The position numbers and the translations under genes were made by a program. Of a stretch of DNA of 57,323 nt, positions 5,957 to 23,902 are shown piece after piece (positions within the stretch are counted from its first letter, which is position 1; the number at the start of each line of letters is the position of its first letter). The DNA comes from an uncultured Clostridia bacterium (GTDB lineage Bacteria > Acidobacteriota > Blastocatellia > UBA7656 > JADIYM01): the NCBI GenBank assembly GCA_964641945.1, contig CAZXLQ010000002.1, positions 1 through 57,323 of the forward strand. The letters run 5' to 3'. The notes beneath the pieces are model-generated. The model was not told the origin of the DNA. It ran no database searches and saw only the letters and a program-made list of their open reading frames with translations.

Positions 5957-8900
5957 CTACGTCCCGGGATTCGGCAGCGGATCGAGCGGCGCTCCGGGGG
6001 ACCCCGCATGCGGCTTCCCTGTTTCCGGCGCCGTCGGTCGGACTTCGCCGTCGCGCTCGCGAATGACGCGTTCGGCAATCTTTCGCCCATAGAGCGAGAA
6101 GATTGCTGGCGTGACGAGCTGATCGAGCAGTGTCGAAGTCAGAATACCGCCGAGCAGAACGACGGCCATCGGATGCAGGATTTCCTTGCCGGGCTGGTCG
6201 GCAGCCAAAATCAGCGGAAGCAGTGAGAGTCCCGCAATGAGCGCCGTCATCATGACGGGCACAAGCCGTTCGAGCGATCCCCGGATGATCATCGACTCCG
6301 AGAATTCCTCGCCCTCTTCGCGCAGCAAGTGCATGTAGTGAGAGACCATCATGATGCCGTTCCGACTCGTGATGCCGATGAGCGAGACAAAGCCGACGAG
6401 CGTTGCAACCGAGAAGACGCCTCCGGTGAGAAACAGCGCCGCGATCGCTCCGATCAGCGCCAGCGGCACGTTCACGAGCACCTGGAGCGCCGAGCGCCAG
6501 TCGCCCAGGGCCTTGAAGAGTAGCAGGAAGATGGCGATGAGCGAGAAGAGCGACAGCACGAGCAGCCGCTGGGTCGCCTGCTGCTGCGCTTCGAACTGAC
6601 CGCCGTATTCCACGAAGTAGCCCTCGGGGAGCCTGGCCCCGGCCCCGATGCGCTGCCGCATTTCGGCCACGACGGAGCCGAGGTCGCGCCCGGCAACGTT
6701 CGCCGAGATGACGATGCGTCGGAGTGTGTTCTCGCGCAGCACCTGGTTGGGCCCGGGCAGCGATTCGATTGCGGCGACGGCCGACACGGGGATCTGCGTG
6801 CCCTGGGGTGTGTCGATCGTGACGGCGCGCAGGGCGTCCAGACTGCCGCGCGACGCGTCGTCGAACCGCACGACGACGTCGAACCGGCGCTGTCCCTCGA
6901 GCGCCTGCGAAACCCGACGTCCGTTGAGCGCCATCTGGAGCGTCTCGGCGACCTCGCCCGGTCGCACTCCGTACCGCGCGGCAGCCGTTCGGTCGATCGT
7001 GTACCGGATCTGCGGTATGAGCACCTGCTTCTCGATCTGCACGTCGACGGCGCCCGGGACCGTCGTCATGAGGTTGCGGATCTCCTCCGCCGTCGAGCGA
7101 AGCTGCGCGAGGTCGTCGCCGAAGAGCTTCACGGCGATCTGCGCCCGCACGCCCGACTGAAGATGGTCGATGCGATGCGAAATCGGTTGGCCGACACTCG
7201 TGTTCACGCCGGGAATGAGGGCGAGCTTCTCGCGGATGTCGGCGAGGACCTCGTCGCGCGGGCGGCCGTCGTGGTCGAGGTCGACGTCGATTTCGGTGTA
7301 GTGGACGCCCTCGGCGTGTTCGTCGAGCTCAGCGCGACCGGTACGCCTCCCGGTCGAAATGACATCGGGCACTTCGAGCAGCAGCCGTTCGGCAATCGAT
7401 CCGATCCGATCGCTTTCGGCTAGGCTCGTCCCTGGCTCGGCGAAGACGTTGATCGTGAGCGTTCCCTCGTTGAACTCGGGCAGAAAACTGGTTCCGACGA
7501 ACGGAAGCGCCGCCATCGACACAACGAAGAGCAGTGCGGCCGTCGCCACGACCTTCCACGGATTCCGGAGCGTCCGGCGAAGCAGGCGCTCGTCCCAGCG
7601 CTTCAGGAATCGCACGAGCCAGCTGTCACCGCCGTCGTCCCGGAATTTCATCTTCGGCAGCAGGAACGACGCGAGAACCGGCGTCACCGTGAGGCTCACG
7701 ACAAGCGACGCAAGCAGCGACGCGATGTAGGCAAGGCCGAGCGGAGCGAGGAGCCTGCCTTCGACGCCGGTCAGCGCGAAAAGCGGCAGAAAGACGAGCG
7801 CCACGATGAACGTCGCGTAGACGATGCTCGACCGGACCTCGAGCGAAGCGCGGAAGATCACCTCGATGACGGGGCGCGGCGCGGCAAGCAGACGGTTCTC
7901 CTTGATCCGGCGAAAGATGTTCTCGATATCGACGATCGAGTCGTCGACGAGCTCGCCGATCGCCACGGCCAGGCCGCCGAGCGTCATCGTGTTGATGGAC
8001 GAGCCCGTCGCCCAGAAGACGAGAAAAGCGATGACGAACGAGAGCGGAATCGCGGTGAGCGTGATTGCCGTCGTCCGCAGGTTCATCAGGAAGAGGAACA
8101 GCACGATGACGACGAGAATCGAGCCGTCCCTGAGCGCGTGAAGGATGTTGTCGATCGACGTGTTGATGAAGTGCGCCTGGCGGAAGAGCTGCGGGTTGAT
8201 CTCGATGTCGTCGGGCAGCGTGCGCCGAAGGTCCGAGATGGCGGCATCGATCGTGTCGGTGAGCTCGAGCGTCGAAGCGCCCGGCTGTTTCTGGACCGAC
8301 ATGATCACGGCCGGTTTGCCGTTGGCTCCCGCGTCACCGCGCTTGATTCTCGGACCGAACTCGACCGTGGCGACGTCGGCCAGCAGCACCGGCGTGCCGT
8401 TGCGGTACGCGACAGCCGTCTGCCCGAGCTCTTCCGGCGTGTAGAACCGGCCAAGCGTCCGGACCAGGTACTCCTGCGACTGCTCGTCGACGAAACCGCC
8501 CGTTGCGTTCACGTTCGACTGCTCGAGCGCCGCCGAGACTTCCTCGATCGTGACGCCGAACTGGGCGAGCTTCTGCGGCGAGACGAGCGCCTGGTATTGC
8601 TTCACACCGCCACCGATGTTGATGACCTGCGAGACGCCGGGGATTGTCAGGAGGCGCGGCCGAATCGTCCAGTCGGCCACGGATCGGACCTCGAGCGGAT
8701 CGGTCTCGCCGGACTTCGAGCTGACGGAGATGAGCAGGATCTCGCCCATGATCGACGAGATCGGCCCCATCGTCGGGGCGACGCCCGGCGGGAGCTGTTC
8801 GCGGGCAAGGGTCAGCTTCTCGGAGACGAGCTGCCGGTTCTTGAAGACGTCGGTGCCCCAGTCGAACTCGACATAAACGATTGACAACCCGATGCCGCTC

Positions 8901-9154
8901 TGCGAACGAACGCGCGTGACGCCGGGCGCCCCATTCATCGCCGTCTCGATCGGATAGGTGACGAGGGACTCGACTTCTTCCGGAGCGAGTCCCTCGGCCT
9001 CCGTGAGAATCGTGACGGTCGGCCGGTTCAGATCCGGCAGGACGTCGATCGGCAGCTTCACCGCCACGTAGCTGCCCCAGACGAGCAGCAGTGCAGCGAC
9101 CGCCACGACGAGCAGCCGGTTGTCGAGCGACCATCGAATGAGCGCGTTGAGCAT
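5957..9154 (-). CDS. CusA/CzcA-family heavy-metal efflux RND transporter (pump 1)
   Basis: 1065 aa. The N-terminus MLNALIRWSLDNRLLVVAVAALLLVWG...LPIDVLPDLNRPTVTILTEAEGLAPEEVESLVTYPIE is typical of the HME-RND family, with a 12-TM architecture. Confidence 0.9.
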   Translation of the reverse strand: MLNALIRWSLDNRLLVVAVAALLLVWGSYVAVKLPIDVLPDLNRPTVTILTEAEGLAPEEVESLVTYPIETAMNGAPGVTRVRSQSGIGLSIVYVEFDWGTDVFKNRQLVSEKLTLAREQLPPGVAPTMGPISSIMGEILLISVSSKSGETDPLEVRSVADWTIRPRLLTIPGVSQVINIGGGVKQYQALVSPQKLAQFGVTIEEVSAALEQSNVNATGGFVDEQSQEYLVRTLGRFYTPEELGQTAVAYRNGTPVLLADVATVEFGPRIKRGDAGANGKPAVIMSVQKQPGASTLELTDTIDAAISDLRRTLPDDIEINPQLFRQAHFINTSIDNILHALRDGSILVVIVLFLFLMNLRTTAITLTAIPLSFVIAFLVFWATGSSINTMTLGGLAVAIGELVDDSIVDIENIFRRIKENRLLAAPRPVIEVIFRASLEVRSSIVYATFIVALVFLPLFALTGVEGRLLAPLGLAYIASLLASLVVSLTVTPVLASFLLPKMKFRDDGGDSWLVRFLKRWDERLLRRTLRNPWKVVATAALLFVVSMAALPFVGTSFLPEFNEGTLTINVFAEPGTSLAESDRIGSIAERLLLEVPDVISTGRRTGRAELDEHAEGVHYTEIDVDLDHDGRPRDEVLADIREKLALIPGVNTSVGQPISHRIDHLQSGVRAQIAVKLFGDDLAQLRSTAEEIRNLMTTVPGAVDVQIEKQVLIPQIRYTIDRTAAARYGVRPGEVAETLQMALNGRRVSQALEGQRRFDVVVRFDDASRGSLDALRAVTIDTPQGTQIPVSAVAAIESLPGPNQVLRENTLRRIVISANVAGRDLGSVVAEMRQRIGAGARLPEGYFVEYGGQFEAQQQATQRLLVLSLFSLIAIFLLLFKALGDWRSALQVLVNVPLALIGAIAALFLTGGVFSVATLVGFVSLIGITSRNGIMMVSHYMHLLREEGEEFSESMIIRGSLERLVPVMMTALIAGLSLLPLILAADQPGKEILHPMAVVLLGGILTSTLLDQLVTPAIFSLYGRKIAERVIRERDGEVRPTAPETGKPHAGSPGAPLDPLPNPGT

Positions 9155-9184: not shown

Positions 9185-10081
9185 CTAGGCGCCGATCTGC
9201 AGGACGAATGGCACCGTGATGACCTTACCGGCACGCTGGAACTGCGCCCACACCTTGTAGAGACCGGCCTTCGGAAACTCGGTGTGCGCCATGACCTGAC
9301 TCGGACTGCCGGCCGCCTCGTGCGTGTTGCCGTGCGACCCGCCGTGATTCATCGCGCCATGGTCCATCCCCCCGGAATGCGCGTCCCCTTGGCCGTCCAT
9401 GTCTCCCGACATCGGATGGGCGTGCAGGAACTCCGAACCATCCTGGCTGATGAGGACGAAGTGGGCGTATTCACCGAGGTACTTCTCGAGGTTCGTGACC
9501 GGGTTGCCGCTGACCGCGTCCTTCACGTCGAAGTACAGCGTCGTGGGAGACCCGGGTTTCAATGCGCCGTCCGGCCGCAGTGTCACCGTGAGTCCATCGA
9601 CCGATTTCACGAGCGACGTATCGGCGACGAGCGCCTCTGGCGCACGTTGCGGTCCTTCGACATTGACCGGGATCGTGTCGACGGTCGCCTTGCCGCCTTC
9701 GGGCTTGTAGTCGGCATACAGCAGATACGGCCCACCGCTCGCGAATGTGTGCGTAACGGTCAGGCTGCCGTCGGCATTGGCCTGCGGGTGAATGTGGCTG
9801 AAATCGGCGAGGTCCTTCGAGACGACGAGCAGGTGCAGGGTCTTTTCGTGGACGACATCGAGGTTCCTGACGACGGCGCCGGAGGCATCCTTGACCGTGA
9901 ACGTAAGCTTGACCGGCTCACCGGCCTTGATGGTTGCCGGCTCCGTTGTCAGCTGCGCCTTCGCGACTCCCGTGGGCGTGGCTTTCTCAGCGGGCGCTCC
10001 GCCGCACGCAATCAACAGGGTCGCTCCACCAGTCAGCGCAACGGTCAGACATCCGATCAACAATCGATTCCCTGTTCGCAT
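9185..10081 (-). CDS. Lipoprotein with two tandem Ig-like (YtkA/FixH-like) domains and a His/Met/Asp-rich loop; putative periplasmic metal binder
   Basis: Start at MRTGNRLLIGCLTVALTGGATLLIACGG (lipobox), preceded by AAGGAG. Two related halves each end in an H-x-HP motif (FSHIHPQ and FLHAHPM). The second half carries HPMSGDMDGQGDAHSGGMDHGAMNHGGSHGNTHE. Confidence 0.65.
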   Translation of the reverse strand: MRTGNRLLIGCLTVALTGGATLLIACGGAPAEKATPTGVAKAQLTTEPATIKAGEPVKLTFTVKDASGAVVRNLDVVHEKTLHLLVVSKDLADFSHIHPQANADGSLTVTHTFASGGPYLLYADYKPEGGKATVDTIPVNVEGPQRAPEALVADTSLVKSVDGLTVTLRPDGALKPGSPTTLYFDVKDAVSGNPVTNLEKYLGEYAHFVLISQDGSEFLHAHPMSGDMDGQGDAHSGGMDHGAMNHGGSHGNTHEAAGSPSQVMAHTEFPKAGLYKVWAQFQRAGKVITVPFVLQIGA

Positions 10082-10125
10082 GGTTCTTACTCCTTCTTGG
10101 CGCCTTATTGGGCGCATTCCCGCAA

Positions 10126-12048
10126 CTACGGCTTCGTTGCACGAAGCTGGTACAGACCCTCGACGACGACGGCGTCGCCCGCCTTCAGGCCGGATGTCAC
10201 CGCGACGTACTCCTGACCCTCGCCGCCGATGGTGATCGGCCGCCGCTCGAACGACTCGCCGCCCGTGTGGACATAGACGTAGGTCTGGCCCTGATCGGAC
10301 ACGACGGCCAGCCTTGGAATCGCCAAAGCCGGGACCGCATCGGTCGTGTCGATCGTTACGTCGATGAACTGACCGTCGCGAAGCTGGTTGCCGGGATTCG
10401 GCACTGTGAAGACGACGGGCAAGGTGCGGGTCGCGGGATCGACGATCGACCCGATCGACACCAGTCGTCCGTTCCCCTCCCCGATGCGATAGACGACGTC
10501 CGGCTGTCCCGACAGGGTGAACGTCGCCGCGGTGAGGCCGCGGATCGCTTCGAGATGTCCCTCGAAGACTCTGGCCTCGACGTAGATACTCGACAGGTCG
10601 ACGATGCGCACGAGCTCGACACCGGCGTCGACCTGCTGGCCGCTCGTTGCGAGGATGTCGGTGACGATGCCCCCTACTGGCGCGATGAGCGGAAACGACC
10701 GGGATGCGCCCGTCGATCCGATGGACTTTTCGGCGACGGCAGCCTGCGCGTCGGCGGCCCTGGCGCCGGCCTCGGCCGTTGCGACCTCGAGCTCGGCGAT
10801 CCGCACGGCCGCTTCGGCTTCGTCGAGCCGCTTCTTCGGCGCCGCACCGATCTCCACGAGCGCTCTGGCTCTTGTGAGCTCGCGCTCGGCGACGGTGAGT
10901 CGCGCCCGCGCCTGGCTTGCTTCGCTTCGCTGCGCTGTCGCCAGCGCGCGCTGCTCGAGTGCGCGCGAGCGCAACTCGACGCGTTGGCCCTCGAGTTGCG
11001 CCTGTTCGGACGCGCCAAGCACTTGCTCGATCGATCCGATCGCCTGGCCGCGGCCGACGCTCGCGCCGATCCGAATGCCACCACCGAGCGTCAATCGGCC
11101 TGAGACCGGCGGCGAAACGATACCCTTCGCATCGGGCCGCGACTGGACCACGCCCGGCGCCTTGACACCGGCGACGACCGGACGCTCACCTGCTTCGACG
11201 GTGCGAATGCCGAAGAGAAGTTGTGACTGCTTCGGGATCGAAACGCTCAGGATCGATCCCGCCTCCGGTGCCGAGGCTGGTCCAGCCGCGGCGGATCCAC
11301 CGGGTTCCCGCTGCTCTCGTATTGGAACGAGCAACGACACGGCAGCGATGCCTGCGAGCAGGAGCGTGGCCGAGGCCGCGATTGGCCGGATCGGTCCTCG
11401 AAAGACACCCTGGTCGCGACGGCCAATGATCCGGAACGCCGGCAACGTCGCCGCAGCGCCGACCAATACGGCCAGGAGCCCATACCAGAAGAAGGCATTG
11501 ACCGGTGCCGCAATGATCGCAAGCGGAAAGTCGGTCGCGATCGTCCTCCCGTCCGACGTACGGACGTCGACCACGAGCCGTGCATCGCCCTGATCGTCGA
11601 AACGCATCGTCGTTGAATAGGCGCCGGACTCGGACGACGCCGCGATGCTCACGGGTTTGCCCGCAGCAGCGCCCGACAGCAGCGTCGGCGTGAGGCTCAC
11701 GGTCGCACCGACGATGGGCACGTCTCCGGTCGGGCCCCCGAATCCCCCTTCGACGAGCTCGACCACCGTCACTTCGACGAGCACCTGTTCGCCCGCCCGC
11801 GGGTCGATCGGCGAGTGCCAGAGCCCGACGCGGAACTGGCCTCCGTCGGTCGTGACGGTTCGTTCGGCGCGCCGACCGGGCGCACCGGCCGTCGACGCTC
11901 CGCTCGTCGCTGTGGCTTTCGGCGCCGCGGAGTCGTGACTGTGATCGTCGCCGCCATCCGCCAACGCCATCGCCGGGAGAATTGCGAGTAGCGCCGCGAC
12001 GGTCGAGAGCCGCACGAAGGCTCGCTGACTTGTGGAAGACGTTCGCAT
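10126..12048 (-). CDS. RND periplasmic adaptor (MFP/HlyD-type) with a ~250-aa N-terminal extension (signal peptide, His-rich tag, Ig-like domain, TM hairpin)
   Basis: The C-terminal ~380 aa has typical MFP features: a coiled-coil hairpin rich in A/E/R, then a beta-barrel and membrane-proximal domain (LIAPVGGIVTDI..., VYVHTGGESFERRPITIG). The N-terminus is MRTSS...ALADGGDDHSHDS, followed by a beta-rich domain and two TM helices. Confidence 0.85.
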   Translation of the reverse strand: MRTSSTSQRAFVRLSTVAALLAILPAMALADGGDDHSHDSAAPKATATSGASTAGAPGRRAERTVTTDGGQFRVGLWHSPIDPRAGEQVLVEVTVVELVEGGFGGPTGDVPIVGATVSLTPTLLSGAAAGKPVSIAASSESGAYSTTMRFDDQGDARLVVDVRTSDGRTIATDFPLAIIAAPVNAFFWYGLLAVLVGAAATLPAFRIIGRRDQGVFRGPIRPIAASATLLLAGIAAVSLLVPIREQREPGGSAAAGPASAPEAGSILSVSIPKQSQLLFGIRTVEAGERPVVAGVKAPGVVQSRPDAKGIVSPPVSGRLTLGGGIRIGASVGRGQAIGSIEQVLGASEQAQLEGQRVELRSRALEQRALATAQRSEASQARARLTVAERELTRARALVEIGAAPKKRLDEAEAAVRIAELEVATAEAGARAADAQAAVAEKSIGSTGASRSFPLIAPVGGIVTDILATSGQQVDAGVELVRIVDLSSIYVEARVFEGHLEAIRGLTAATFTLSGQPDVVYRIGEGNGRLVSIGSIVDPATRTLPVVFTVPNPGNQLRDGQFIDVTIDTTDAVPALAIPRLAVVSDQGQTYVYVHTGGESFERRPITIGGEGQEYVAVTSGLKAGDAVVVEGLYQLRATKP

Positions 12049-12056
12049 CGTGGTTC

Positions 12057-12668
12057 TCAGTGGCTATGCGCCTTGCCGTAGAGCGTCTGCATCACGTGCG
12101 AGTCCTGTCGCACGGCGTCGGCGATCGCTTTCGCCGTGGCTTCGTCGACGCCCGCGGCCTTGATGTCCTTCCCGACGGCGATGGCGTCGTCGTGCCCCTT
12201 GTTCTTGAACTGCGAAAGGAACGCTTCGTCCACGCCTGCAGCCCGAACTTCGCGAATCATCGGCAGGCCGTTGTGGCTGTCGTAGACGATGACGAGCTCG
12301 GTTCCGCCCGCCTTGACGACGGTTGCGGCGCCGATCTGCTTGCGAGCGCCCGAGCCGGTCTCGTAGGCGATGTAGGTGTGGTGGTCGCGGTCGGCGATCT
12401 TCGTCTCTGTACCCTTCTCGACCGTGGCGACCTGCTCGTCGGTCAGAGCCTTGTGCTCGATCGTCACCGATTGCGCCGTCGCGAACACAGCCTTGACGGC
12501 TGCGGGCACGTCGTCACTGGTCGCCTTCGGAGCGTTCGCGGCCGACGGCGCGGCGGCATCCGGTTTCGCGGTGGGCTTTGCCCCATCGCCGGCAGGCGGC
12601 GAGCCGGAGCACGCCGTGAGGCCCGAAAGCGCCGCCGCAAGAAGAAGAATCGACAATCGAATGTGCAT
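12057..12668 (-). CDS. Lipoprotein of unknown function
   Basis: Signal peptide and lipobox MHIRLSILLLAAALSGLTACSG. High GC3. Tightly packed between the OMF gene (stop 3 nt upstream) and the adaptor gene. Confidence 0.6.
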   Translation of the reverse strand: MHIRLSILLLAAALSGLTACSGSPPAGDGAKPTAKPDAAAPSAANAPKATSDDVPAAVKAVFATAQSVTIEHKALTDEQVATVEKGTETKIADRDHHTYIAYETGSGARKQIGAATVVKAGGTELVIVYDSHNGLPMIREVRAAGVDEAFLSQFKNKGHDDAIAVGKDIKAAGVDEATAKAIADAVRQDSHVMQTLYGKAHSH

Positions 12669-12670
12669 GG

Positions 12671-14152
12671 TCAGTTTCCTTTCAATTCGGTCGTGCCGTC
12701 CGGCGTGCGAGCCGGTGGCGTGATGATGGGCGCACCTTCCGAGGCAGGACCCGGTGGCGCCGGGATCGGTGTGGGCGGTGTGACACGCTCAACGGTCACG
12801 AGTGGAGCGCCGACCGCCGCTTCGAGGACCGCCAGGGCCGCATACGTGTCGCGAAGCGCGGCTGCGTACGCCGTCTCGATCTCGACCGTCCTGCGCTGCT
12901 CCGCAAGGACGTCGAACACCGACAGTCCGCCGAGCCCATAGGCCTGCCGGACGCTTGCGAGCGCCCTTCGCTGACGCGGGAGCATTGCCGTCGCGTAGAG
13001 CGTGAGAGACTCGGAAGCGGCACGGTAGCGCGCGAAGGCGTCGGCGACGTCACGCGTGATCGTCGCCTCGACCGCTTCGCGCTCGGCAAGTGCCTGCGAC
13101 CGGGCGGCCACGCTCGAGAGGATCTCGCCCTGGTTCCGGTTGGCGACCGGGATTTCGATCGAGATGCCGAACCTGAGCGTTCGCTCCGGGAGCGTACCCG
13201 TTACAGCGCCTGACTCAACGTTATGAAGCGTGGACGTCGAGTACCGAACGGAGGCGACGACGTCGGGAGTGCGCCCCGCCTCGGCAAGCCGCAATCGTGC
13301 CGCGGCGGCCTTCTCGGCGGCGCGCGCAGCGATAAGTTCGGGCCGAGACTGCCGGGCGAGCAGTGAGAGTTCATCAGCACTCTGGGCCACGAGCGGTGGC
13401 GACTCCGGAAGCGGTGCGATGACAAGCGCTTCGCCTGGAGCAAGTCCGACAAGCTCGCGAATCCCGGCGACCTCGACAGCGAGGCTTGCACGGGCTTCGA
13501 TCATCTGGACGCGAAGGCGGTCGGACTCCTGCTCGATGAGCGCGAGGTCGAGCCCCGACGCGTCGCCTTCGGCGAGCCGCGCTCGAGTCAGTCGCGCGAG
13601 ATCGTCATTGAGTCGCACGAGCTCGCTGTAGGCGGCGAGCAGCCGGTCGGCGCCCTGCGCGCGAGCGACGGCGCCGCGGACATCAGCCGAGAATCGATTC
13701 AGCACTGCATCGACCCCTGCTCGCGCTCGTTCGGTCTCGGCCTCCGCGACGTCGATGCGGCGTGTGCGCTTTCCGCCGAGCTCGAATCGCTGCGCGACGC
13801 CAACCTCGAATTCCTGCTTGTTCGTCTCGCCGAAGATCCCGGGCGGACCGACGACGGTCTCGAGCTCGGGATTTGGTCGAAGGCCTGCCTGCACTCGGGC
13901 GCCTTCGGCAATGTCGACCTGCAGTCGCTCGGCCCGAAGAGCCGGACGCCGGCTACGTCCGAGTTGAATGATCTGGTCGACCGTTTGTCCCGCCGTGTCG
14001 AAGAGCTCGCTCCGGTAAGGTGCGACGGCTGGGGGTGCCGCAGTCGCGGGATTCGCGGACTCCTGCGCGGACGCAATGCCAGGCCCGGCGATAGACAACG
14101 CGAGCACCACGGCTGCACACACGAGCCGGCGCATACGGTGAATGCGCCTCAT
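12671..14152 (-). CDS. TolC/CzcC-family outer-membrane efflux factor (OMF 1)
   Basis: Start set at MRRIHRMRRLVCAAVVLALSIAGPGIASAQ, which forms an ATGA overlap with the upstream ORF stop. An alternative ATG lies 18 nt downstream. Two repeated helical OEP-type halves are present. Confidence 0.85.
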   Translation of the reverse strand: MRRIHRMRRLVCAAVVLALSIAGPGIASAQESANPATAAPPAVAPYRSELFDTAGQTVDQIIQLGRSRRPALRAERLQVDIAEGARVQAGLRPNPELETVVGPPGIFGETNKQEFEVGVAQRFELGGKRTRRIDVAEAETERARAGVDAVLNRFSADVRGAVARAQGADRLLAAYSELVRLNDDLARLTRARLAEGDASGLDLALIEQESDRLRVQMIEARASLAVEVAGIRELVGLAPGEALVIAPLPESPPLVAQSADELSLLARQSRPELIAARAAEKAAAARLRLAEAGRTPDVVASVRYSTSTLHNVESGAVTGTLPERTLRFGISIEIPVANRNQGEILSSVAARSQALAEREAVEATITRDVADAFARYRAASESLTLYATAMLPRQRRALASVRQAYGLGGLSVFDVLAEQRRTVEIETAYAAALRDTYAALAVLEAAVGAPLVTVERVTPPTPIPAPPGPASEGAPIITPPARTPDGTTELKGN

Positions 14153-14739
14153 ACCGGTATCGCAACGGCGTTTCGGCGTCTCGAAATGCGCGGCCACAGA
14201 GCCACGACCCAGATGCCGGCAACGACCAGGAAAAACGCCGAGATGACGAGCGTGAACGGCGAGAGGGCGGACCTGCTGCCGACCGGCGCGGCCTTCGGTG
14301 CAGCAACGGTCAATGCGCCAACCTTCACGTCGAAGGTCTCGCCTCCGCGCTCGATCTGGACTGCGAGATCGTAGGTGCCCGACGGTTGCGCCGAGACGTC
14401 CGCAAACAGCATTCCCGGAATTTCACCAGTCGCGGCGCTCGTTCGAACGCTGCCCACGACGAGCGTGAGCTTCGCATCCGCGATCGGCGCGTTCGTGGCG
14501 GCATCGGTCAGGAAGAGCTCGGCGAGCCAGGGCGTGTCGGGAAGGACGGCGTCGTGTTTGACGACGATCTCCATTTCATGCGCTGTCGCGGTTCGAACGA
14601 CCTTCGAGCCGGCTTCGTTGACGACCTTGGCGGCGTCTTCACTGTGGTCCTCGCCGCCGTGTCCCAGAGCCGGCATCGCTGAGACAAGCGCAGCTGTCAA
14701 GACGAACAGAGCGACGGTGAAACGATGGAGCCTTCGCAT
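14149..14739 (-). CDS. Secreted, C-terminally TM-anchored His-tagged Ig-like protein; stand-alone paralogue of the adaptor N-terminal module
   Basis: 196 aa. Signal peptide, then a mature N-terminus HGGEDHSED, a beta-rich domain, and a TM helix (LSPFTLVISAFFLVVAGIWVVALW). It is the first gene downstream of a consensus sigma54 promoter. Confidence 0.65.
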   Translation of the reverse strand: MRRLHRFTVALFVLTAALVSAMPALGHGGEDHSEDAAKVVNEAGSKVVRTATAHEMEIVVKHDAVLPDTPWLAELFLTDAATNAPIADAKLTLVVGSVRTSAATGEIPGMLFADVSAQPSGTYDLAVQIERGGETFDVKVGALTVAAPKAAPVGSRSALSPFTLVISAFFLVVAGIWVVALWPRISRRRNAVAIPV

Positions 14740-14780
14740 ATCTTGATCCTCCCCCGACTAACGAGAACCTCAGGGACGTA

Positions 14781-14795
14781 GCAAACAACGTGCCG
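14781..14795 (-). promoter_or_regulatory. Sigma54 promoter P1 (GGCACG-TTGT-TTGCT) for the 10-gene RND1 operon
   Basis: The minus strand reads CCGGCACGTTGTTTGCTAC, an exact GG-N10-GC match to the extended consensus. The -12 element lies ~40 nt upstream of the ATG at 14739. Confidence 0.75.
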
Positions 14796-14894
14796 GGCCG
14801 ACACCGGGACACGGTCGACGCAGAAGTTGCTGCGATAGATGCCCTAGTGAATCCATTCGGCACGATACTTAGTATGTTGGACGCGCCGCCAAAC

Positions 14895-14930
14895 GTCTGG
14901 TTTCAGACAGCGGGCTGTTTGAAACCAGAC
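14895..14930. promoter_or_regulatory. 36-bp near-perfect palindrome (17-bp arms, one mismatch); candidate enhancer (UAS) for P1
   Basis: Sequence is GTCTGGTTTCAGACAGC-GG-GCTGTTTGAAACCAGAC. It is centred ~117 bp upstream of the P1 -24 element and contains GTCTG-N4-CAGAC, which is also found upstream of P5. It could alternatively be the terminator hairpin of the decayed upstream gene. Confidence 0.45.
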
Positions 14931-14971
14931 AGTCCGTTCTAGCGTTGAAGGGGTTCGAGCACGTCGCGCCG

Positions 14972-15217
14972 TCAGTCAGCTTGTCCGCGCAGCATCCGCG
15001 TGCCGTAGGACCACACGTAGTCGCCGGCCTTGTCAGGCGTGAACTCGATCGTCGTCGTCGTTGATCGAGGGCACGTCGCGCGCAACTCCGAAGTGGCCGA
15101 ACACAACGTGCTGGCTGCACTGTGCCACTCGCACTCTCGGTGGCCATGTCGCGTGCGCCGACTGCACATTCCGGCACGCCATGCTGCCATCCGGACCTCG
15201 GTCTAGACCGAGGTCAT
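14972..15217 (-). pseudogene. Decayed cupredoxin-like (plastocyanin/EfeO-N type) gene remnant
   Basis: A GGGAGGA RBS and ATG are followed by an in-frame TAG after 4 codons. One frame gives ...CSQHVVFGHFGVARDVPSINDDDD and, after a frameshift in the GAC repeat, IEFTPDKAGDYVWSYGTRMLRG. The expected family motif is ...EFTP.KAGEY.F.CGMGMLRG, and the Cys/Met ligands are mutated. Confidence 0.5.
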
Positions 15218-15366: not shown

Positions 15367-15825
15367 TCAGGAACCCGCCGGTAACACCTTGATCGTGTCA
15401 ACCTTCAGGTAGTGCTTGTCGCCCTCATGCCGCGCCGTTCCCGTGACTTCAGCGTGGACGCCCGTGTGCGCGGTCCAATCCTTACCATCCTTCTTGAGCG
15501 ACATCTTGCCGTCCTCGAGGATGTATAGCCGAGTCTCACCGTTCTCGGTCACCGCGAGTGCACCGGGCACGTCACTCTTGGCGCAGCGGACGGCACATGT
15601 CTTATCAGCCTCGGTCCCGTAGGCAACCGTCTTGCGATCGGCTTCAAACCAGCACATCGAACAGACGACCTGGCCTCTGAGCGTAACCGTCGCGGCGGAA
15701 GGATGCGCATGCTCGTGTTGATCGGGTCCGTGTTCTGCGTGGTTGTGTTGGGCGCGAACGGGCATCGTGGCCGCGCCTGCGACCAGCAACATCACGCTCG
15801 CGAGAGAGAATGCAAGGGTCTTCAT
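15367..15825 (-). CDS. Secreted His-rich, four-Cys protein of unknown function (last gene of the DUF2318-ABC cluster)
   Basis: Start at MKTLAFSLASVMLLVAGAATMPVRAQ, preceded by AGGAG. The mature N-terminus is HNHAEHGPDQHEHAH. A CxxC-X17-CxxxC pattern is present (CSMCWF...KTCAVRC). Confidence 0.65.
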   Translation of the reverse strand: MKTLAFSLASVMLLVAGAATMPVRAQHNHAEHGPDQHEHAHPSAATVTLRGQVVCSMCWFEADRKTVAYGTEADKTCAVRCAKSDVPGALAVTENGETRLYILEDGKMSLKKDGKDWTAHTGVHAEVTGTARHEGDKHYLKVDTIKVLPAGS

Positions 15826-15901
15826 TCGATCACTCCTTCTGATTGACAGTCGTATTTCCGGTTCATCTCCTTCGAATCCGCTCGGACCCGATACACGGCG
15901 A

Positions 15902-16663
15902 TCACCTTCGTGACTCGACGGCCGCGCGGTCATGGTCGTCGAGGAACTCGGCCTGTGGATCGCGTGCGGGGTCGGAGTCGCCCAACGAGCTGTCACCGAC
16001 TACCTGCCCGTCGAGGAGGCGTACGACCCGGCGAGCGAGGCGGGCGACCGACTCGTCGTGCGTGACGACGACGACCGTGTGTCCGGCGCGGTTGAGTTCC
16101 GAGAGCAACTCCATTACCGCTCGACCGGTGCCGCTGTCGAGGTTGCCTGTGGGCTCGTCGGCCAGGATGAGCGGGGGCTCGTTGACCACGGCTCTGGCGA
16201 TGGCGACGCGCGCCTGTTCGCCGCCCGAGAGCTCCGACGGCAGACGACGCTCCATGTCCCCGAGGCCGACCGACTCGAGCGCTCGAAGCGCCAGCTCCCG
16301 CTTCTCTCGCGCCCCCAGCCTTGTGACGACGAGCGGGAGCTCGACGTTCTCGACCGCAGTCAGGTATGGCATGAGGTGGTGTTGCTGGAAGACAAAGCCG
16401 AGGTATTCGTTCCGAAAGTCGGCCCGCCTCTCATCAGTGAGCCCGTAGACGTCGATTCCTTCGAATCGGACGCTCCCTCGTGTCGGCTTGTTCATTGCGC
16501 CGAGAATCGTCAAAAGTGTCGACTTGCCCGAGCCCGATGGCCCCATGAGCGCGACGAACTCGCCCTCGGAGATCGAGAGGTCGACGCCGTCGAGCGCCGG
16601 CAGGTCGGCCACCGCGTAAAGCTTCCAGACATCCTCGAGCGAGATGAAGTCCCGATCAGACAT
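15902..16663 (-). CDS. ABC transporter ATP-binding protein (MacB/LolD-type)
   Basis: Start at MSDRDFISLEDV. Walker A is GPSGSGKST, the signature is LSGGEQARVAIARA, and Walker B is LILADEPTGNLD. It overlaps the permease gene by 8 nt. Confidence 0.9.
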   Translation of the reverse strand: MSDRDFISLEDVWKLYAVADLPALDGVDLSISEGEFVALMGPSGSGKSTLLTILGAMNKPTRGSVRFEGIDVYGLTDERRADFRNEYLGFVFQQHHLMPYLTAVENVELPLVVTRLGAREKRELALRALESVGLGDMERRLPSELSGGEQARVAIARAVVNEPPLILADEPTGNLDSGTGRAVMELLSELNRAGHTVVVVTHDESVARLARRVVRLLDGQVVGDSSLGDSDPARDPQAEFLDDHDRAAVESRR

Positions 16664-17927
16664 TGCGGAGCGCCTCCGTGGGGTCGAGTCGCGAGGCCCT
16701 GAGCGCCGGATAGAGAGCGCCGAGTGCGCCGAGCGCGACCGCGCCGCCAACGGCGACGAGCGCGACGATCGGGTCCGCCTCGACGGCCAGGGCGGCCCCT
16801 TGCGTGAAATACCGAATGGCGAGCGCCCCGACCCCGAGCCCGAGCCCCCAGCCGACGAACCCTCCGACCGCGGAAACGGCCGCGATCTCGATGCCGAGGA
16901 TGCAGAGGATGTGCGACCGGCGGAAGCCGACCGCGCGGAGGACGCCGATTTCGCGCCGCCGCTCGGTGACCGAGCTCGTCACCGTGACGAATACCAGCAG
17001 CGCGCCTACGACGAGAACGACCATGGCGAGCGCCGCGCCGAAGCGGCCGACGCGCGCGAGCGTCATCGAGCGGGCCTTGACGGCCTGCTGCACGGCCGTC
17101 ACCTGCGCGTTCGGAAGTGCGTCCGAGATCTGGGCGACCATCATCTCGACCGGACATTCGATGCAGAGCGCCGAGACCTCGACGAGGCTCAGCTCGCCGG
17201 GCCGGCCGAGGAGTTCCTGGGCCGTGGCAAGGTCGACGAACGCCATCCGGTCGTCGGCCGAGCCCACGGGCGCAAGCACGCCCGCGACCCGGAAATCGCG
17301 CCCGCCGAGCCTGACCAGGACATGGGCGAGCTCGACGGGGCTCGCTTCCTGCGTGCCCTCGGCCGGTTCCGCTCTCGTCGCTCGACCTGCGTGCGTCGCG
17401 TGGCGCGACGCGTCTTCGGACTCGGGCGCCTCGGCCGCGACGCCGGCGAGCACGGCCGCAGCCTCGCTGCCGAGCAACACCTCGTCGCGAGCGGTGGGGA
17501 GGCGGCCGTCGACGTGCCACCATGACTTCAACCGGGTCGTCTCCTCGAAGTCGACGCCCGCCACCGGGACGCGCCGGCCTCCGGCGTCGACCGAGCCGAC
17601 GAGCGCAGGGGCGACGACGGCGAGTCGCTCGGCGTATTCGATCGAGCGAATCGCATCGAGATCCTCGAAGCGAAGCCGCTCGACCTCGTAAGAGACGCCC
17701 GAGACCGAGACTCCACCGTAGCTCACCTCGAGGCCGTCGGTGCGCGGCGCAACGACGATGTTCGCGCCGTAGCGGTCGATCTCCTCGCCAAGGTGACGTT
17801 CGAGCGCCGTCGTGACGCCGGCAAGCGCCACAGCCGTCGCGACGCCGATTGCGAGCCCGACGGCGACGAGCGCGGCGCGGGCCTTGCCGCGCCGCAGGTG
17901 CTCAAATGCGATGCTCGCGAGTCTCAC
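16656..17927 (-). CDS. FtsX/MacB-type ABC transporter permease
   Basis: GTG start gives VRLASIAFEHLRRGKARAALVAVGLAIG, 10 nt after the upstream stop. It has a large periplasmic domain between TM1 and TM2 and a C-terminal FtsX-like 3-TM bundle. The start codon is uncertain. Confidence 0.75.
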   Translation of the reverse strand: MRLASIAFEHLRRGKARAALVAVGLAIGVATAVALAGVTTALERHLGEEIDRYGANIVVAPRTDGLEVSYGGVSVSGVSYEVERLRFEDLDAIRSIEYAERLAVVAPALVGSVDAGGRRVPVAGVDFEETTRLKSWWHVDGRLPTARDEVLLGSEAAAVLAGVAAEAPESEDASRHATHAGRATRAEPAEGTQEASPVELAHVLVRLGGRDFRVAGVLAPVGSADDRMAFVDLATAQELLGRPGELSLVEVSALCIECPVEMMVAQISDALPNAQVTAVQQAVKARSMTLARVGRFGAALAMVVLVVGALLVFVTVTSSVTERRREIGVLRAVGFRRSHILCILGIEIAAVSAVGGFVGWGLGLGVGALAIRYFTQGAALAVEADPIVALVAVGGAVALGALGALYPALRASRLDPTEALRNV

Positions 17928-17937
17928 AAGCAGCGCC

Positions 17938-18573
17938 TCAGAACCACCGGACGCCGGACGCGACGTCACTTCGTTTGACGACGATCGAATCGCCAGCGGT
18001 CGTAGACGGAAGCGAGATCGGGTGGCAGCCGCCCTTGCCACCCATTTCGGTAATCTCGGCGATGGCGAACGTCTTGCCACACTTGCGGCACTGCATGTGG
18101 TCGCCCTTCTGGACGTAGCCCTTCTTGGCCTCCGCGCAAACCTGGCATGCATCGAGCGCAACGTGTACGCGGCCCGCGGCGTCGCGCACGGCGAAGAACG
18201 GCACCTTCGTTCCGTTCATGTCGGCCGTGAAGAAGGCCGCCTCTGTCGTGATCCCGGCCGCGGGCACACGGACCACCTCACCGTCGAACGCAATCGGCTT
18301 GGCCGCCGACGCTGACGCCCCGGACGGAGCGCCGTTGTTACTCGCGACGCCTGTGGCACCGGTCGAGGGCGCCGCCGAGCCTCGGTCGACTCCCTCGCCT
18401 GAGTTGCCCCCTTTCGTGAAGAAGAACGCACCTGCAATCACGATGGCAACGGCGACGAACCCGACGAGGAGGGCGCTGCGGTTCCCTACTGACTTTGGCC
18501 GGGTTTCGTCGAAGCGGAGCCGCTTGCGATCTCGGTTCCCAACCGTGCTCTGGTCCGTGTTACTCATACTCAC
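17938..18573 (-). CDS. DUF2318-type membrane-anchored Cys-rich protein
   Basis: N-terminal TM helix (ALLVGFVAVAIVIAGAFFF). The extracytoplasmic domain carries CQVC...X17...CRKC plus GGCHP. The DUF2318 assignment is from memory of this architecture next to FtsX/ABC genes. Confidence 0.65.
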   Translation of the reverse strand: MSMSNTDQSTVGNRDRKRLRFDETRPKSVGNRSALLVGFVAVAIVIAGAFFFTKGGNSGEGVDRGSAAPSTGATGVASNNGAPSGASASAAKPIAFDGEVVRVPAAGITTEAAFFTADMNGTKVPFFAVRDAAGRVHVALDACQVCAEAKKGYVQKGDHMQCRKCGKTFAIAEITEMGGKGGCHPISLPSTTAGDSIVVKRSDVASGVRWF

Positions 18574-21509: not shown

Positions 21510-21524
21510 GCAACTGGCGTGCCG
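21510..21524 (-). promoter_or_regulatory. Sigma54 promoter P6 (GGCACG-CCAG-TTGCC) upstream of the GH57 cluster
   Basis: The minus strand reads GCCGGCACGCCAGTTGCCC, an exact GGCACG-N4-TTGC match. It is intergenic and correctly oriented. Confidence 0.65.
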
Positions 21525-23748: not shown

Positions 23749-23902
23749 GGCATGTCCTCCGGGTTCCTGGGGCCAGGCCGTTCTTCGCTCGAGCCGACGG
23801 CAACTGCCGTGCCAGTCAACGTGGATTCGTGGGCAGTCATCGGTCGGCGCAGTCACGGATTCCCTCGCGAGTTGACGTCCGCTGTTGCGGTCGTTTTCTT
23901 CA

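Follow-up and report, generated by a model that had tools for sequence, protein, structure and literature searches.

Why would a heavy-metal efflux operon encode an adaptor with an additional N-terminal unit and, separately, a small protein that looks like the same unit set free? The question is raised by contig CAZXLQ010000002.1 (assembly GCA_964641945.1) of an uncultured bacterium that GTDB places in the Acidobacteriota (Blastocatellia; UBA7656; JADIYM01). We analyzed positions 1 to 57,323 of its forward strand, a stretch of 57,323 nucleotides referred to below as the window. Its minus strand carries a resistance-nodulation-division (RND) efflux operon. A preliminary description, made from the letters alone, had proposed that the 640-aa periplasmic adaptor (10126–12048) and the 196-aa product of the first gene, ORF1 (14149–14739), contain the same His/Asp-tagged immunoglobulin (Ig)-like module, once fused and once free. 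Our comparisons support a remote common origin of the two modules and link the module to one clade of heavy-metal pumps. They also point to a probable role as a membrane-tethered metallochaperone.

Both coding sequences were confirmed on the minus strand, and the structural features given in the preliminary description proved accurate: signal peptides, His/Asp tags, beta-rich Ig-like domains, one transmembrane (TM) helix in ORF1 against a TM hairpin in the adaptor, and exposure to the periplasm. ORF1 and adaptor residues 1–241 have a common architecture of signal peptide, [H/D]GG[E/D]DH motif, flexible linker, Ig-like sandwich and membrane anchor. In ORF1, the signal peptide (aa 1–26; 14662–14739) ends in AMPALG and is modeled by AlphaFold2 (AF2) as a hydrophobic helix at residues 2–20. 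The His/acid motif HGGEDHSED (aa 27–35; 14635–14661) is of the H-x4-H type and, as in the rest of the family, comes after an AxA or AxG sequence. It is followed by a YtkA-like Ig domain (aa 38–148; 14296–14628), with eight modeled strands between residues 38 and 145 and the end sequence VGALTVAAP, and by a C-terminal TM anchor (aa 161–190, helical in the model; 14170–14259) with a basic cytoplasmic tail, RISRRRN.

The adaptor starts with a signal peptide (aa 1–30, helix 6–28; 11959–12048) that ends in AMALA, and then has the motif DGGDDHSHDS (aa 31–40; 11929–11958), in which G32, G33, D35 and H36 are conserved with relative P0002. A flexible Ala/Pro/Thr/Ser linker (aa 41–58; 11875–11928; predicted local confidence, pLDDT, about 50) leads to the YtkA-like Ig domain (aa 59–183; 11500–11874; pLDDT above 95), modeled as a beta sandwich at residues 59–179 that terminates in DFPLAIIAAP. 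The TM hairpin (aa 184–241; 11326–11499) consists of helices 185–211 and 220–240 joined by a basic cytoplasmic loop, RRDQGVFRGPIR. The remainder (aa 242–640; 10126–11325) is a canonical periplasmic adaptor body that matches HlyD_D23 (70.9 bits; cut-off 30), HlyD_3 and, at aa 367–636, the RND adaptor model TIGR01730 RND_mfp (139.1 bits; cut-off 94.9). The adaptor model was built on 29 family members and has a mean pLDDT of 86, with values above 95 across the sandwich; the ORF1 model was built on 13 close sequences and has a pLDDT of 65. The positive-inside rule places both Ig domains, as well as the adaptor body, in the periplasm.

Is the N-terminal module part of the protein at all? An artefact of an over-extended open reading frame (ORF) was considered and rejected, as purifying selection, conservation and transcription all contradict it. 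The adaptor ATG lies 8 nt past the upstream stop codon. In a comparison with one relative of 85–90% identity, dN/dS is 0.15 over motif and linker, 0.18 over the Ig domain and 0.20 over the hairpin; the signal peptide has a value of 0.56 and the beginning of the adaptor body 0.04. Six Acidobacteriota loci encode the module in frame with the adaptor, in proteins of 613–692 aa that are 29–41% identical to the window adaptor. RNA-Seq contigs from a biofilm metatranscriptome, which are assembled contigs and may include DNA carry-over, span 11605–12013 in the N-module, at a depth at least equal to that of the adaptor body, and 14503–14752 in ORF1. These three lines of evidence indicate that the N-module is genuine coding sequence. 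ORF1 is likewise under purifying selection (dN/dS 0.21 against related locus L001). In the output of one public gene caller, translation begins at M27 for the adaptor (614 aa) and at M22 for ORF1 (175 aa); each choice would remove the signal peptide, and we judge both starts to be errors that merit correction.

Whether the two modules share an origin depends on how deep the comparison is. The pairwise alignment suggested in the preliminary description joins ORF1 and the adaptor by BLASTP at E 8e-4, but the aligned part is limited to the His motif and the last residues of the signal peptide, and a first hhalign comparison of shallow alignments covered the same two elements with no gain over BLASTP. 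This is also what would be expected by convergence, in which two unrelated Ig-like domains separately gained a signal peptide, a His/acid tip and a TM anchor, with neither common origin nor paralogy. Profiles of the deep families, in contrast, match over the whole module (hhalign probability 98.9%, E 1.7e-17, 160 columns covering the motif, the sandwich and the first TM segment). With signal peptide, motif and TM removed, the Ig core alone still gives 88% (E 2.8e-6, 47 columns). A hidden Markov model (HMM) of the adaptor-module Ig core matches acidobacterial ORF1 orthologues at E 4e-6 to 1e-4, and the matches between 4e-6 and 3e-5 argue against convergence. So does the YtkA-like family PF13115, the sole Pfam family reached by both module families: 19/29 adaptor modules match it (best E 9.4e-7) and, independently, 7/30 ORF1 relatives (best E 2.9e-7). 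Finally, fusion of an ORF1-type module to adaptors in other bacteria, described below, produces the same overall architecture.

Some of these results leave room for doubt. Much of the 98.9% score derives from the signal peptide, motif and TM segments. The best reversed decoy of the Ig-core HMM scored 5e-4, near some of the cross-hits, and the ORF1 of the window itself was not matched by this HMM. Taken alone, the window ORF1 and adaptor module match no Pfam model, and PF13115 gives no hit to them at E values up to 1. Searches of PDB sequences with ORF1, the adaptor module and the 310-aa lipoprotein of the operon also returned nothing meaningful. On balance we regard convergence as improbable. 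From the profile comparisons, ORF1 and the adaptor N-module are remote homologues of one domain superfamily that carry the same accessory features. The earlier term 'free-standing paralogue' is therefore right as to homology, which deep profiles detect, but not as to closeness: the two are about 20% identical and belong to old, divergent subfamilies, not to a recent paralogous pair.

The adaptor module has a nearer relative in the same operon. The 310-aa lipoprotein (9185–10117, minus strand) contains an additional YtkA-like Ig domain and a His/Met-rich loop, and its first domain (aa 53–154) matches the Ig-core HMM at E 1.6e-9, better than ORF1 does. The operon thus holds at least three such Ig domains. 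The lipoprotein has the lipobox LLIAC and the His/Met-rich stretch HPMSGDMDGQGDAHSGGMDHGAMNHGGSHGNTHE. Its orthologues in loci L007, L013 and L014 reach YtkA and have a C-terminal Cupredoxin_1 domain (E 1e-16 to 1e-21), which the window protein lacks.

A word-indexed homologue search with the adaptor module returned only 2 proteins. Exhaustive searching with HMMER raised this to 90 clusters (50% identity), and in many of these the protein is 600–690 aa long. Profile search with ORF1 retrieved 154 relatives, in which G29, H32, E57, N83, P85 and G109 are invariant across phyla. These relatives have public names such as 'hypothetical', 'LPXTG cell wall anchor' and 'MYXO-CTERM'. The latter two arise because a TM helix followed by an Arg-rich tail mimics a sorting signal; the helix and an RRR tail also cause the weak PF00746 matches (12/30 relatives, best E 0.0033). 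We rejected a true LPXTG or MYXO-CTERM signal, as ORF1 has no LPxTG and the hosts of its relatives are diderm bacteria.

Which form does the module take in other bacteria? The preliminary description had seen fused and split states within one operon, but the contrast for the same module lies across taxa. Six Acidobacteriota loci keep ORF1, outer-membrane factor, lipoprotein, fused adaptor and RND pump in the same order; among Acidobacteriota (Pyrinomonadaceae, Blastocatellia and an 'Actinomycetota' bin), both the free ORF1 and the fused adaptor are thus always retained. The last of these, L014, is recorded as an Actinomycetota metagenome-assembled genome and has a complete outer-membrane factor–adaptor–RND operon of this type; its proteins resemble those of the Blastocatellia bin L015, and the label is probably a binning or labeling error. 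Betaproteobacteria have the split form: in Denitratisoma, other members of the class and a Ralstonia plasmid (L018), an ORF1-like gene lies between the outer-membrane factor and the adaptor. Methylobacteriaceae and Thiothrix have the fused form. In Candidatus Thiothrix namsaraevi, a 521-aa adaptor begins ...ALA|HGGEDHSH and its ORF1-type sandwich runs straight into the adaptor with no TM segment. In Methylobacterium aquaticum plasmid pMaqPC1, WP_203159499.1 consists of a signal peptide, HAGHDHG, an ORF1-type sandwich, a TM segment, HRRR, a second hydrophobic helix ending in SSAFA and the adaptor. A similar fused adaptor on the M. extorquens AM1 megaplasmid (L019, 5893–7686; unannotated in the PLSDB table) has a second helix that ends in TNAFA.

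These fusions suggest how the hairpin arose. In L017 and L019, the second helix still resembles the old signal peptide of an adaptor, and in the M. extorquens version (L019) the motif past the hairpin corresponds to the one at the mature N-terminus of unfused betaproteobacterial adaptors. Judged from these sequences, the hairpin of the proteobacterial fusions is the C-terminal anchor of the module joined to the former signal peptide of the adaptor. By analogy, the acidobacterial hairpin likely has the same origin. The L019 adaptor carries two His motifs, AYA|HEGHDHG ahead of the Ig domain and AFA|HGGEDHG past the hairpin, which is a clear fossil of the fusion of the small exported-protein gene, known as cep (see below), with an adaptor gene. 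Such fusions, recurrent and presumably independent, link the module functionally to the adaptor in the 'Rosetta stone' sense.

Immediately past the pump, proteobacterial systems also encode a small secreted protein (121–151 aa) whose N-terminus in the mature form is often rich in His (L003 12824–13273; L005 13084–13455; L006 12814–13269; L017 10842–11207; L018 10845–11243; L019 10879–11244). These proteins are mutually homologous (1e-5 to 1e-61). Compared with the ORF1 family, they give 93% by hhalign (E 2.6e-7) and 16% for the core only, so they may be a third, soluble paralogue. The 166-aa protein that follows the pump in the window is unrelated to them.

The pump itself (5957–9154, minus strand) identifies the type of system. 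It matches the CusA/CzcA heavy-metal RND model TIGR00914 over its full length (870.5 bits; cut-off 701.45), and its best solved relative is CusA (E 6e-159), followed by ZneA (2e-144). A CusA-type Cu(I)/Ag(I) pump was rejected, since the methionine triad is absent: on alignment to 3k07_A, with a chain numbering offset of +8 derived by hand, M573, M623 and M672 of CusA correspond to N, Y and H. Instead, the pump has EHAEGVH (aa 612–618), SHRIDH (aa 659–664) and the TM4 sequence AIGELVDDSIVDIEN. The same pattern, RAE[LM]DEHAEGVH, PISHR[IL]DH and TM4 GxxVDD[AS][IV]V[DG][IV]EN, is found in the window pump and in all 13 related pumps encoded beside an ORF1-like gene or a fused module.

HAEGVH and HRLDH mark NieA of the nieIC-cep-nieBA operon in Cupriavidus neocaledonicus STM 6070 (PMC7060636). 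The authors of that work noted the gene cep ('conserved exported protein') between the outer-membrane factor and the adaptor and, from motifs alone, proposed a new heavy-metal efflux (HME) class for nickel (PMC7060636). The window pump falls in this NieA clade (the proposed 'class 6' HME; PMC7060636), with HAEGVH and with HRIDH, in which Ile replaces Leu. The order of outer-membrane factor, small exported protein, adaptor and HAEGVH/HRLDH pump is also the pattern of loci L002–L006 and L018. From synteny and pump motifs, the relatives of ORF1 appear to include cep. The two accounts differ in that cep was given no function or fold, and fusions went unreported (PMC7060636). The association of the module with NieA-type pumps is strict in four bacterial groups (Acidobacteriota, Alpha-, Beta- and Gammaproteobacteria), and this clade is without a characterised member.

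Fold comparison relates the module to copper proteins. The best Foldseek matches of the adaptor module are CrdA (E 8e-5; TM-score 0.67 on CrdA length), FetP/P19/FtrA, CopC, DUF4426 and PmoD. Helicobacter pylori CrdA (PDB 9ll2, 9ll4), a copper protein of the CopC family, is periplasmic; its gene opens crdAB-czcBA, from which an outer-membrane factor, an adaptor and an RND pump are also made (PMC9182242, PMC12319023). It is thus alike in position and in its periplasmic Ig-like fold. It differs in being soluble, with a Met-rich metal loop and no His or Cys (PMC9182242), has 12% sequence similarity to the adaptor module, and is known with no N-terminal tip, TM anchor or fusion. CopC itself has a similar fold (5icu, E 3e-4), but the His tip of the module lies on a disordered linker and not in a folded-domain site, and 1/29 members matches the CopC family (PF04234; E 0.026).

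YtkA domains are implicated in extracytoplasmic copper delivery, as CtaK and as the C-terminal domain of YcnJ in Bacillus subtilis (PMC13344008). CtaK and YcnJ resemble the module in being membrane-anchored, extracytoplasmic and Ig-like (PMC13344008), while CtaK has a lipid anchor and serves CuA assembly of cytochrome oxidase instead of efflux. YcnI (DUF1775) and PmoD share the plan of signal peptide, periplasmic or extracellular beta-sandwich copper domain and C-terminal TM helix, but occur in uptake or enzyme-assembly contexts, not in RND efflux. YcnI makes use of the N-terminal His of the mature protein (10.1101/2021.06.11.448128), which lies within the folded domain, unlike the tip of the module on its disordered linker. 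There is no sequence match to the YcnI family (PF07987).

The functional comparison made in the preliminary description was with CusF. CusF and the CusF-like domain of SilB, an adaptor of Cupriavidus metallidurans, represent a small periplasmic metal-binding fourth component of HME-RND systems that is found as a free protein and also as part of the adaptor (PMC4446572, PMC6235853): the domain is free in Escherichia coli and C-terminal in SilB (PMC4446572). Proteobacterial ORF1-like genes take the position that cusF has in cusCFBA, with the outer-membrane factor gene on one side and the adaptor gene on the other. The differences lie in the chemistry and the attachment. CusF is a soluble oligonucleotide/oligosaccharide-binding (OB) fold with a Met2His Cu(I)/Ag(I) site, whereas the module combines an Ig sandwich and a tip of His, Asp and Glu, and is tethered to the membrane, fused N-terminally through a TM hairpin and associated with pumps without the CusA Met triad. 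No match to CusF (PF11604 CusF_Ec) was found, the models are Ig sandwiches and there is no Met-rich site. A CusF-like function with unrelated sequence, as first suggested, is thus supported by the operon slot, the Rosetta-stone fusions, the fold matches to copper proteins and the YtkA hits, with metal binding as a presumed property.

The candidate metal ligands are at the tip. ORF1 residues H27, G28, G29, E30, D31 and H32 are invariant in alignment A1, and in 98/119 relatives the mature protein is predicted to start with H[GE][GD]E[DE]H, directly after an AxA/AxG signal-peptidase site; the remainder have GGDSSDGH[TS]H or GDGHDHG in this place. Among adaptor modules, 25/43 have an H-x4-H type motif after the signal peptide, most others begin AHE or AHG, and a few have none. 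Unfused betaproteobacterial adaptors have a motif of their own at the mature N-terminus (ARA|HGDEDHG in L002). Because pLDDT is near 50 at the tip in both models, the models suggest that it is flexibly tethered. A literature search for the motif strings returned nothing relevant.

Taken together, we consider it probable, though well short of certain, that the module is a tethered periplasmic metallochaperone that hands metal to a NieA-type pump. This is the best-supported mechanism because of the operon position, the fusions, the similar His motifs on module, adaptor and pump, and the copper-protein relatives. The module would be a fourth component of NieA-type pumps, in which a YtkA-like Ig sandwich is anchored to the inner membrane on its periplasmic side and carries an H-x4-H-type tip on a flexible linker of 20–30 residues. 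The entry site of these pumps would use His/Asp/Glu (HAEGVH, HRxDH) in place of the methionines of CusA. The tethered motif would catch a periplasmic metal ion close to the membrane. The ion would then pass by ligand exchange to the N-terminal motif of the adaptor in Proteobacteria, or straight to the site in the pump that is rich in His, and the Ig domain would attach the module to the complex of adaptor and pump. Fusion to the adaptor would set stoichiometry and proximity, and the hairpin would be what is left of the module anchor and the adaptor signal peptide. More tentatively, these proteins may be an unrecognised class of membrane-tethered periplasmic metallochaperones, in which the H-x4-H tip mirrors the HAEGVH of the pump, the ion is relayed from Cep to adaptor to pump, and fusion hard-wires this relay.

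Several points weigh against the chaperone model. For every family member, we infer metal binding, the direction of transfer, docking and the identity of the metal. Foldseek with the low-confidence ORF1 model (pLDDT 65) gave no significant structural match, and the list for the adaptor module also contains generic Ig-like domains (complement, OST subunits, arrestin), ranked after the copper proteins. In the window adaptor, Asp replaces the initial His of the motif. Some adaptor-family members lack the motif, which therefore cannot be the whole function, and no conserved Cys/Met/His cluster was found in the Ig domains outside the tip. The last two points would fit a structural or assembly accessory, in which the Ig domain and TM segment stabilize the adaptor hexamer or position it on the pump, in the manner of AcrZ on AcrB, and the tip has no part in substrate transfer: the fused adaptors without a motif keep both Ig domain and hairpin, and Ig core and hairpin are as constrained as the motif. 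We nevertheless think such a role unlikely. The free proteins keep their tip, in the H[GE][GD]E[DE]H form or as another His-rich sequence, and the motif is repeated at the N-terminus of proteobacterial adaptors. In addition, docking at the membrane cannot be essential, given that the Thiothrix fusion lacks a TM segment, and the fold and Pfam neighbors traffic metals.

A metal-binding tip beside a pump would fit equally well with a periplasmic sensor or switch that activates the pump allosterically, as proposed for CusB on CusA, or with a PcoE/SilE-like buffer; in neither case would the ion be handed on. CusB has been reported as a direct activator of CusA (PMC4446572), and sequence data cannot separate a switch from a chaperone. 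However, a single short motif per protein offers little capacity as a buffer, there is no cytoplasmic signaling domain except a short basic tail, and a dedicated two-component system is already there. A sensor, switch or buffer therefore seems to us, like the structural accessory, a rather poor bet beside the metallochaperone.

Which metal the system would handle is less clear, and we somewhat favor copper, perhaps Cu(II), slightly ahead of nickel, cobalt and zinc. The fold and Pfam neighbors of the module point to copper, as does the Cupredoxin_1 domain on the orthologues of the 310-aa lipoprotein. Betaproteobacterial systems adjoin CusS-type sensors and CusR-type regulators, CopK, CusF and DUF411, and the Methylobacterium system adjoins a P-type ATPase (Cu-ATPase), a helix-turn-helix (HTH) regulator and a heavy-metal-associated (HMA) protein. 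The latter system lies in what were described as copper clusters with 'CusAB' and without CusC and CusF (PMC9948745). In favor of nickel, cobalt or zinc, hard His/Asp/Glu ligands replace Met, and a CsoR/RcnR-type repressor and a cation diffusion facilitator (CDF) transporter lie beside the Ralstonia system. The published motif argument is in favor of nickel (PMC7060636).

The operon is a single tightly packed row of genes on the minus strand, in the order ORF1, outer-membrane factor, 203-aa lipoprotein, 640-aa adaptor, 310-aa lipoprotein and RND pump. It continues 3' of the pump with the 166-aa membrane protein, a sigma-54-type response regulator and a histidine kinase. The outer-membrane factor is of the TolC/OEP family (12671–14152; PF02321, E 5e-42), and its likely ATG at 14152 gives a 4-nt overlap with the ORF1 stop; the same overlap is called in L001. 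The 203-aa lipoprotein (12057–12668), between outer-membrane factor and adaptor, has no assigned family and no match in Pfam or NCBIfam. It is kept at this junction in every acidobacterial locus (phmmer 1e-19 to 1e-62); proteobacterial systems lack it.

The transcription unit starts with ORF1, because the metatranscriptome contigs cover it as far as 14752 and 14796–15200 is empty in three runs; the contig boundary falls between 14752 and 14795. Upstream of ORF1, a strong Shine-Dalgarno sequence, GGGGGAGGA, is read directly at 14747–14755 (minus strand), 7 nt from the ATG. It is preceded by a candidate sigma-54-type promoter, CGGCAC-N5-TTGC (14781–14795, minus strand), with one mismatch to TGGCAC-N5-TTGC. 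Similar elements lie 5' of the ORF1-like gene in five related loci (L001, L007, L013, L014 and L015). The window is enriched in such matches: it has 10 where 2.5 would be expected, a count that none of the shuffles attained. Further matches lie at 21510, 22128, 22305, 23800, 24240, 25266, 29616 and 30024, those at 23800 and 29616 being perfect. Upstream of the operon, a further metal-looking cluster (15367–18573, minus strand) encodes a 209-aa product with several Cys and the His-rich tip AQHNHAEHGPDQHEHAHP, a MacB/FtsX-type ABC pair and an FtrD-like protein (PF10080, E 2.6e-25).

The best-understood periplasmic hand-off to an RND pump runs from CusF to CusB to CusA through soft methionine sites for Cu(I)/Ag(I). 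A periplasmic metal-binding fourth component that is at times fused to the adaptor is known already from CusF/SilB and CrdA, and the free gene had been noticed as 'cep'. The literature that we searched contains no description of the fold assignment or the His-tipped tether of the module, of the link between free and fused forms, of the hairpin as a fusion fossil, or of the strict association with NieA-type pumps across four bacterial groups.

The finding points to a parallel solution to the hand-off, with His/Asp/Glu ligands, another fold and membrane tethering. It provides a function-level hypothesis, and a family worth naming, for proteins now labeled 'hypothetical' or, wrongly, 'LPXTG cell wall anchor'. 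The module accounts for the apparent absence of CusF from the 'CusAB' clusters of Methylobacteriaceae, and its natural fused and split versions are test material for the effect of chaperone proximity on efflux. All sampled 31-letter words of window positions 10126–14900 (share 1.00) occur in about 20 metagenomes of several studies, which sampled activated sludge, wastewater, bioreactors, biofilm and compost. The host is thus a widespread wastewater bacterium; the nearest named relatives of the operon, at about 40% identity, are in Pyrinomonadaceae and Blastocatellia. Given how common this host is in activated sludge, the system may be relevant to the metal tolerance of wastewater communities.

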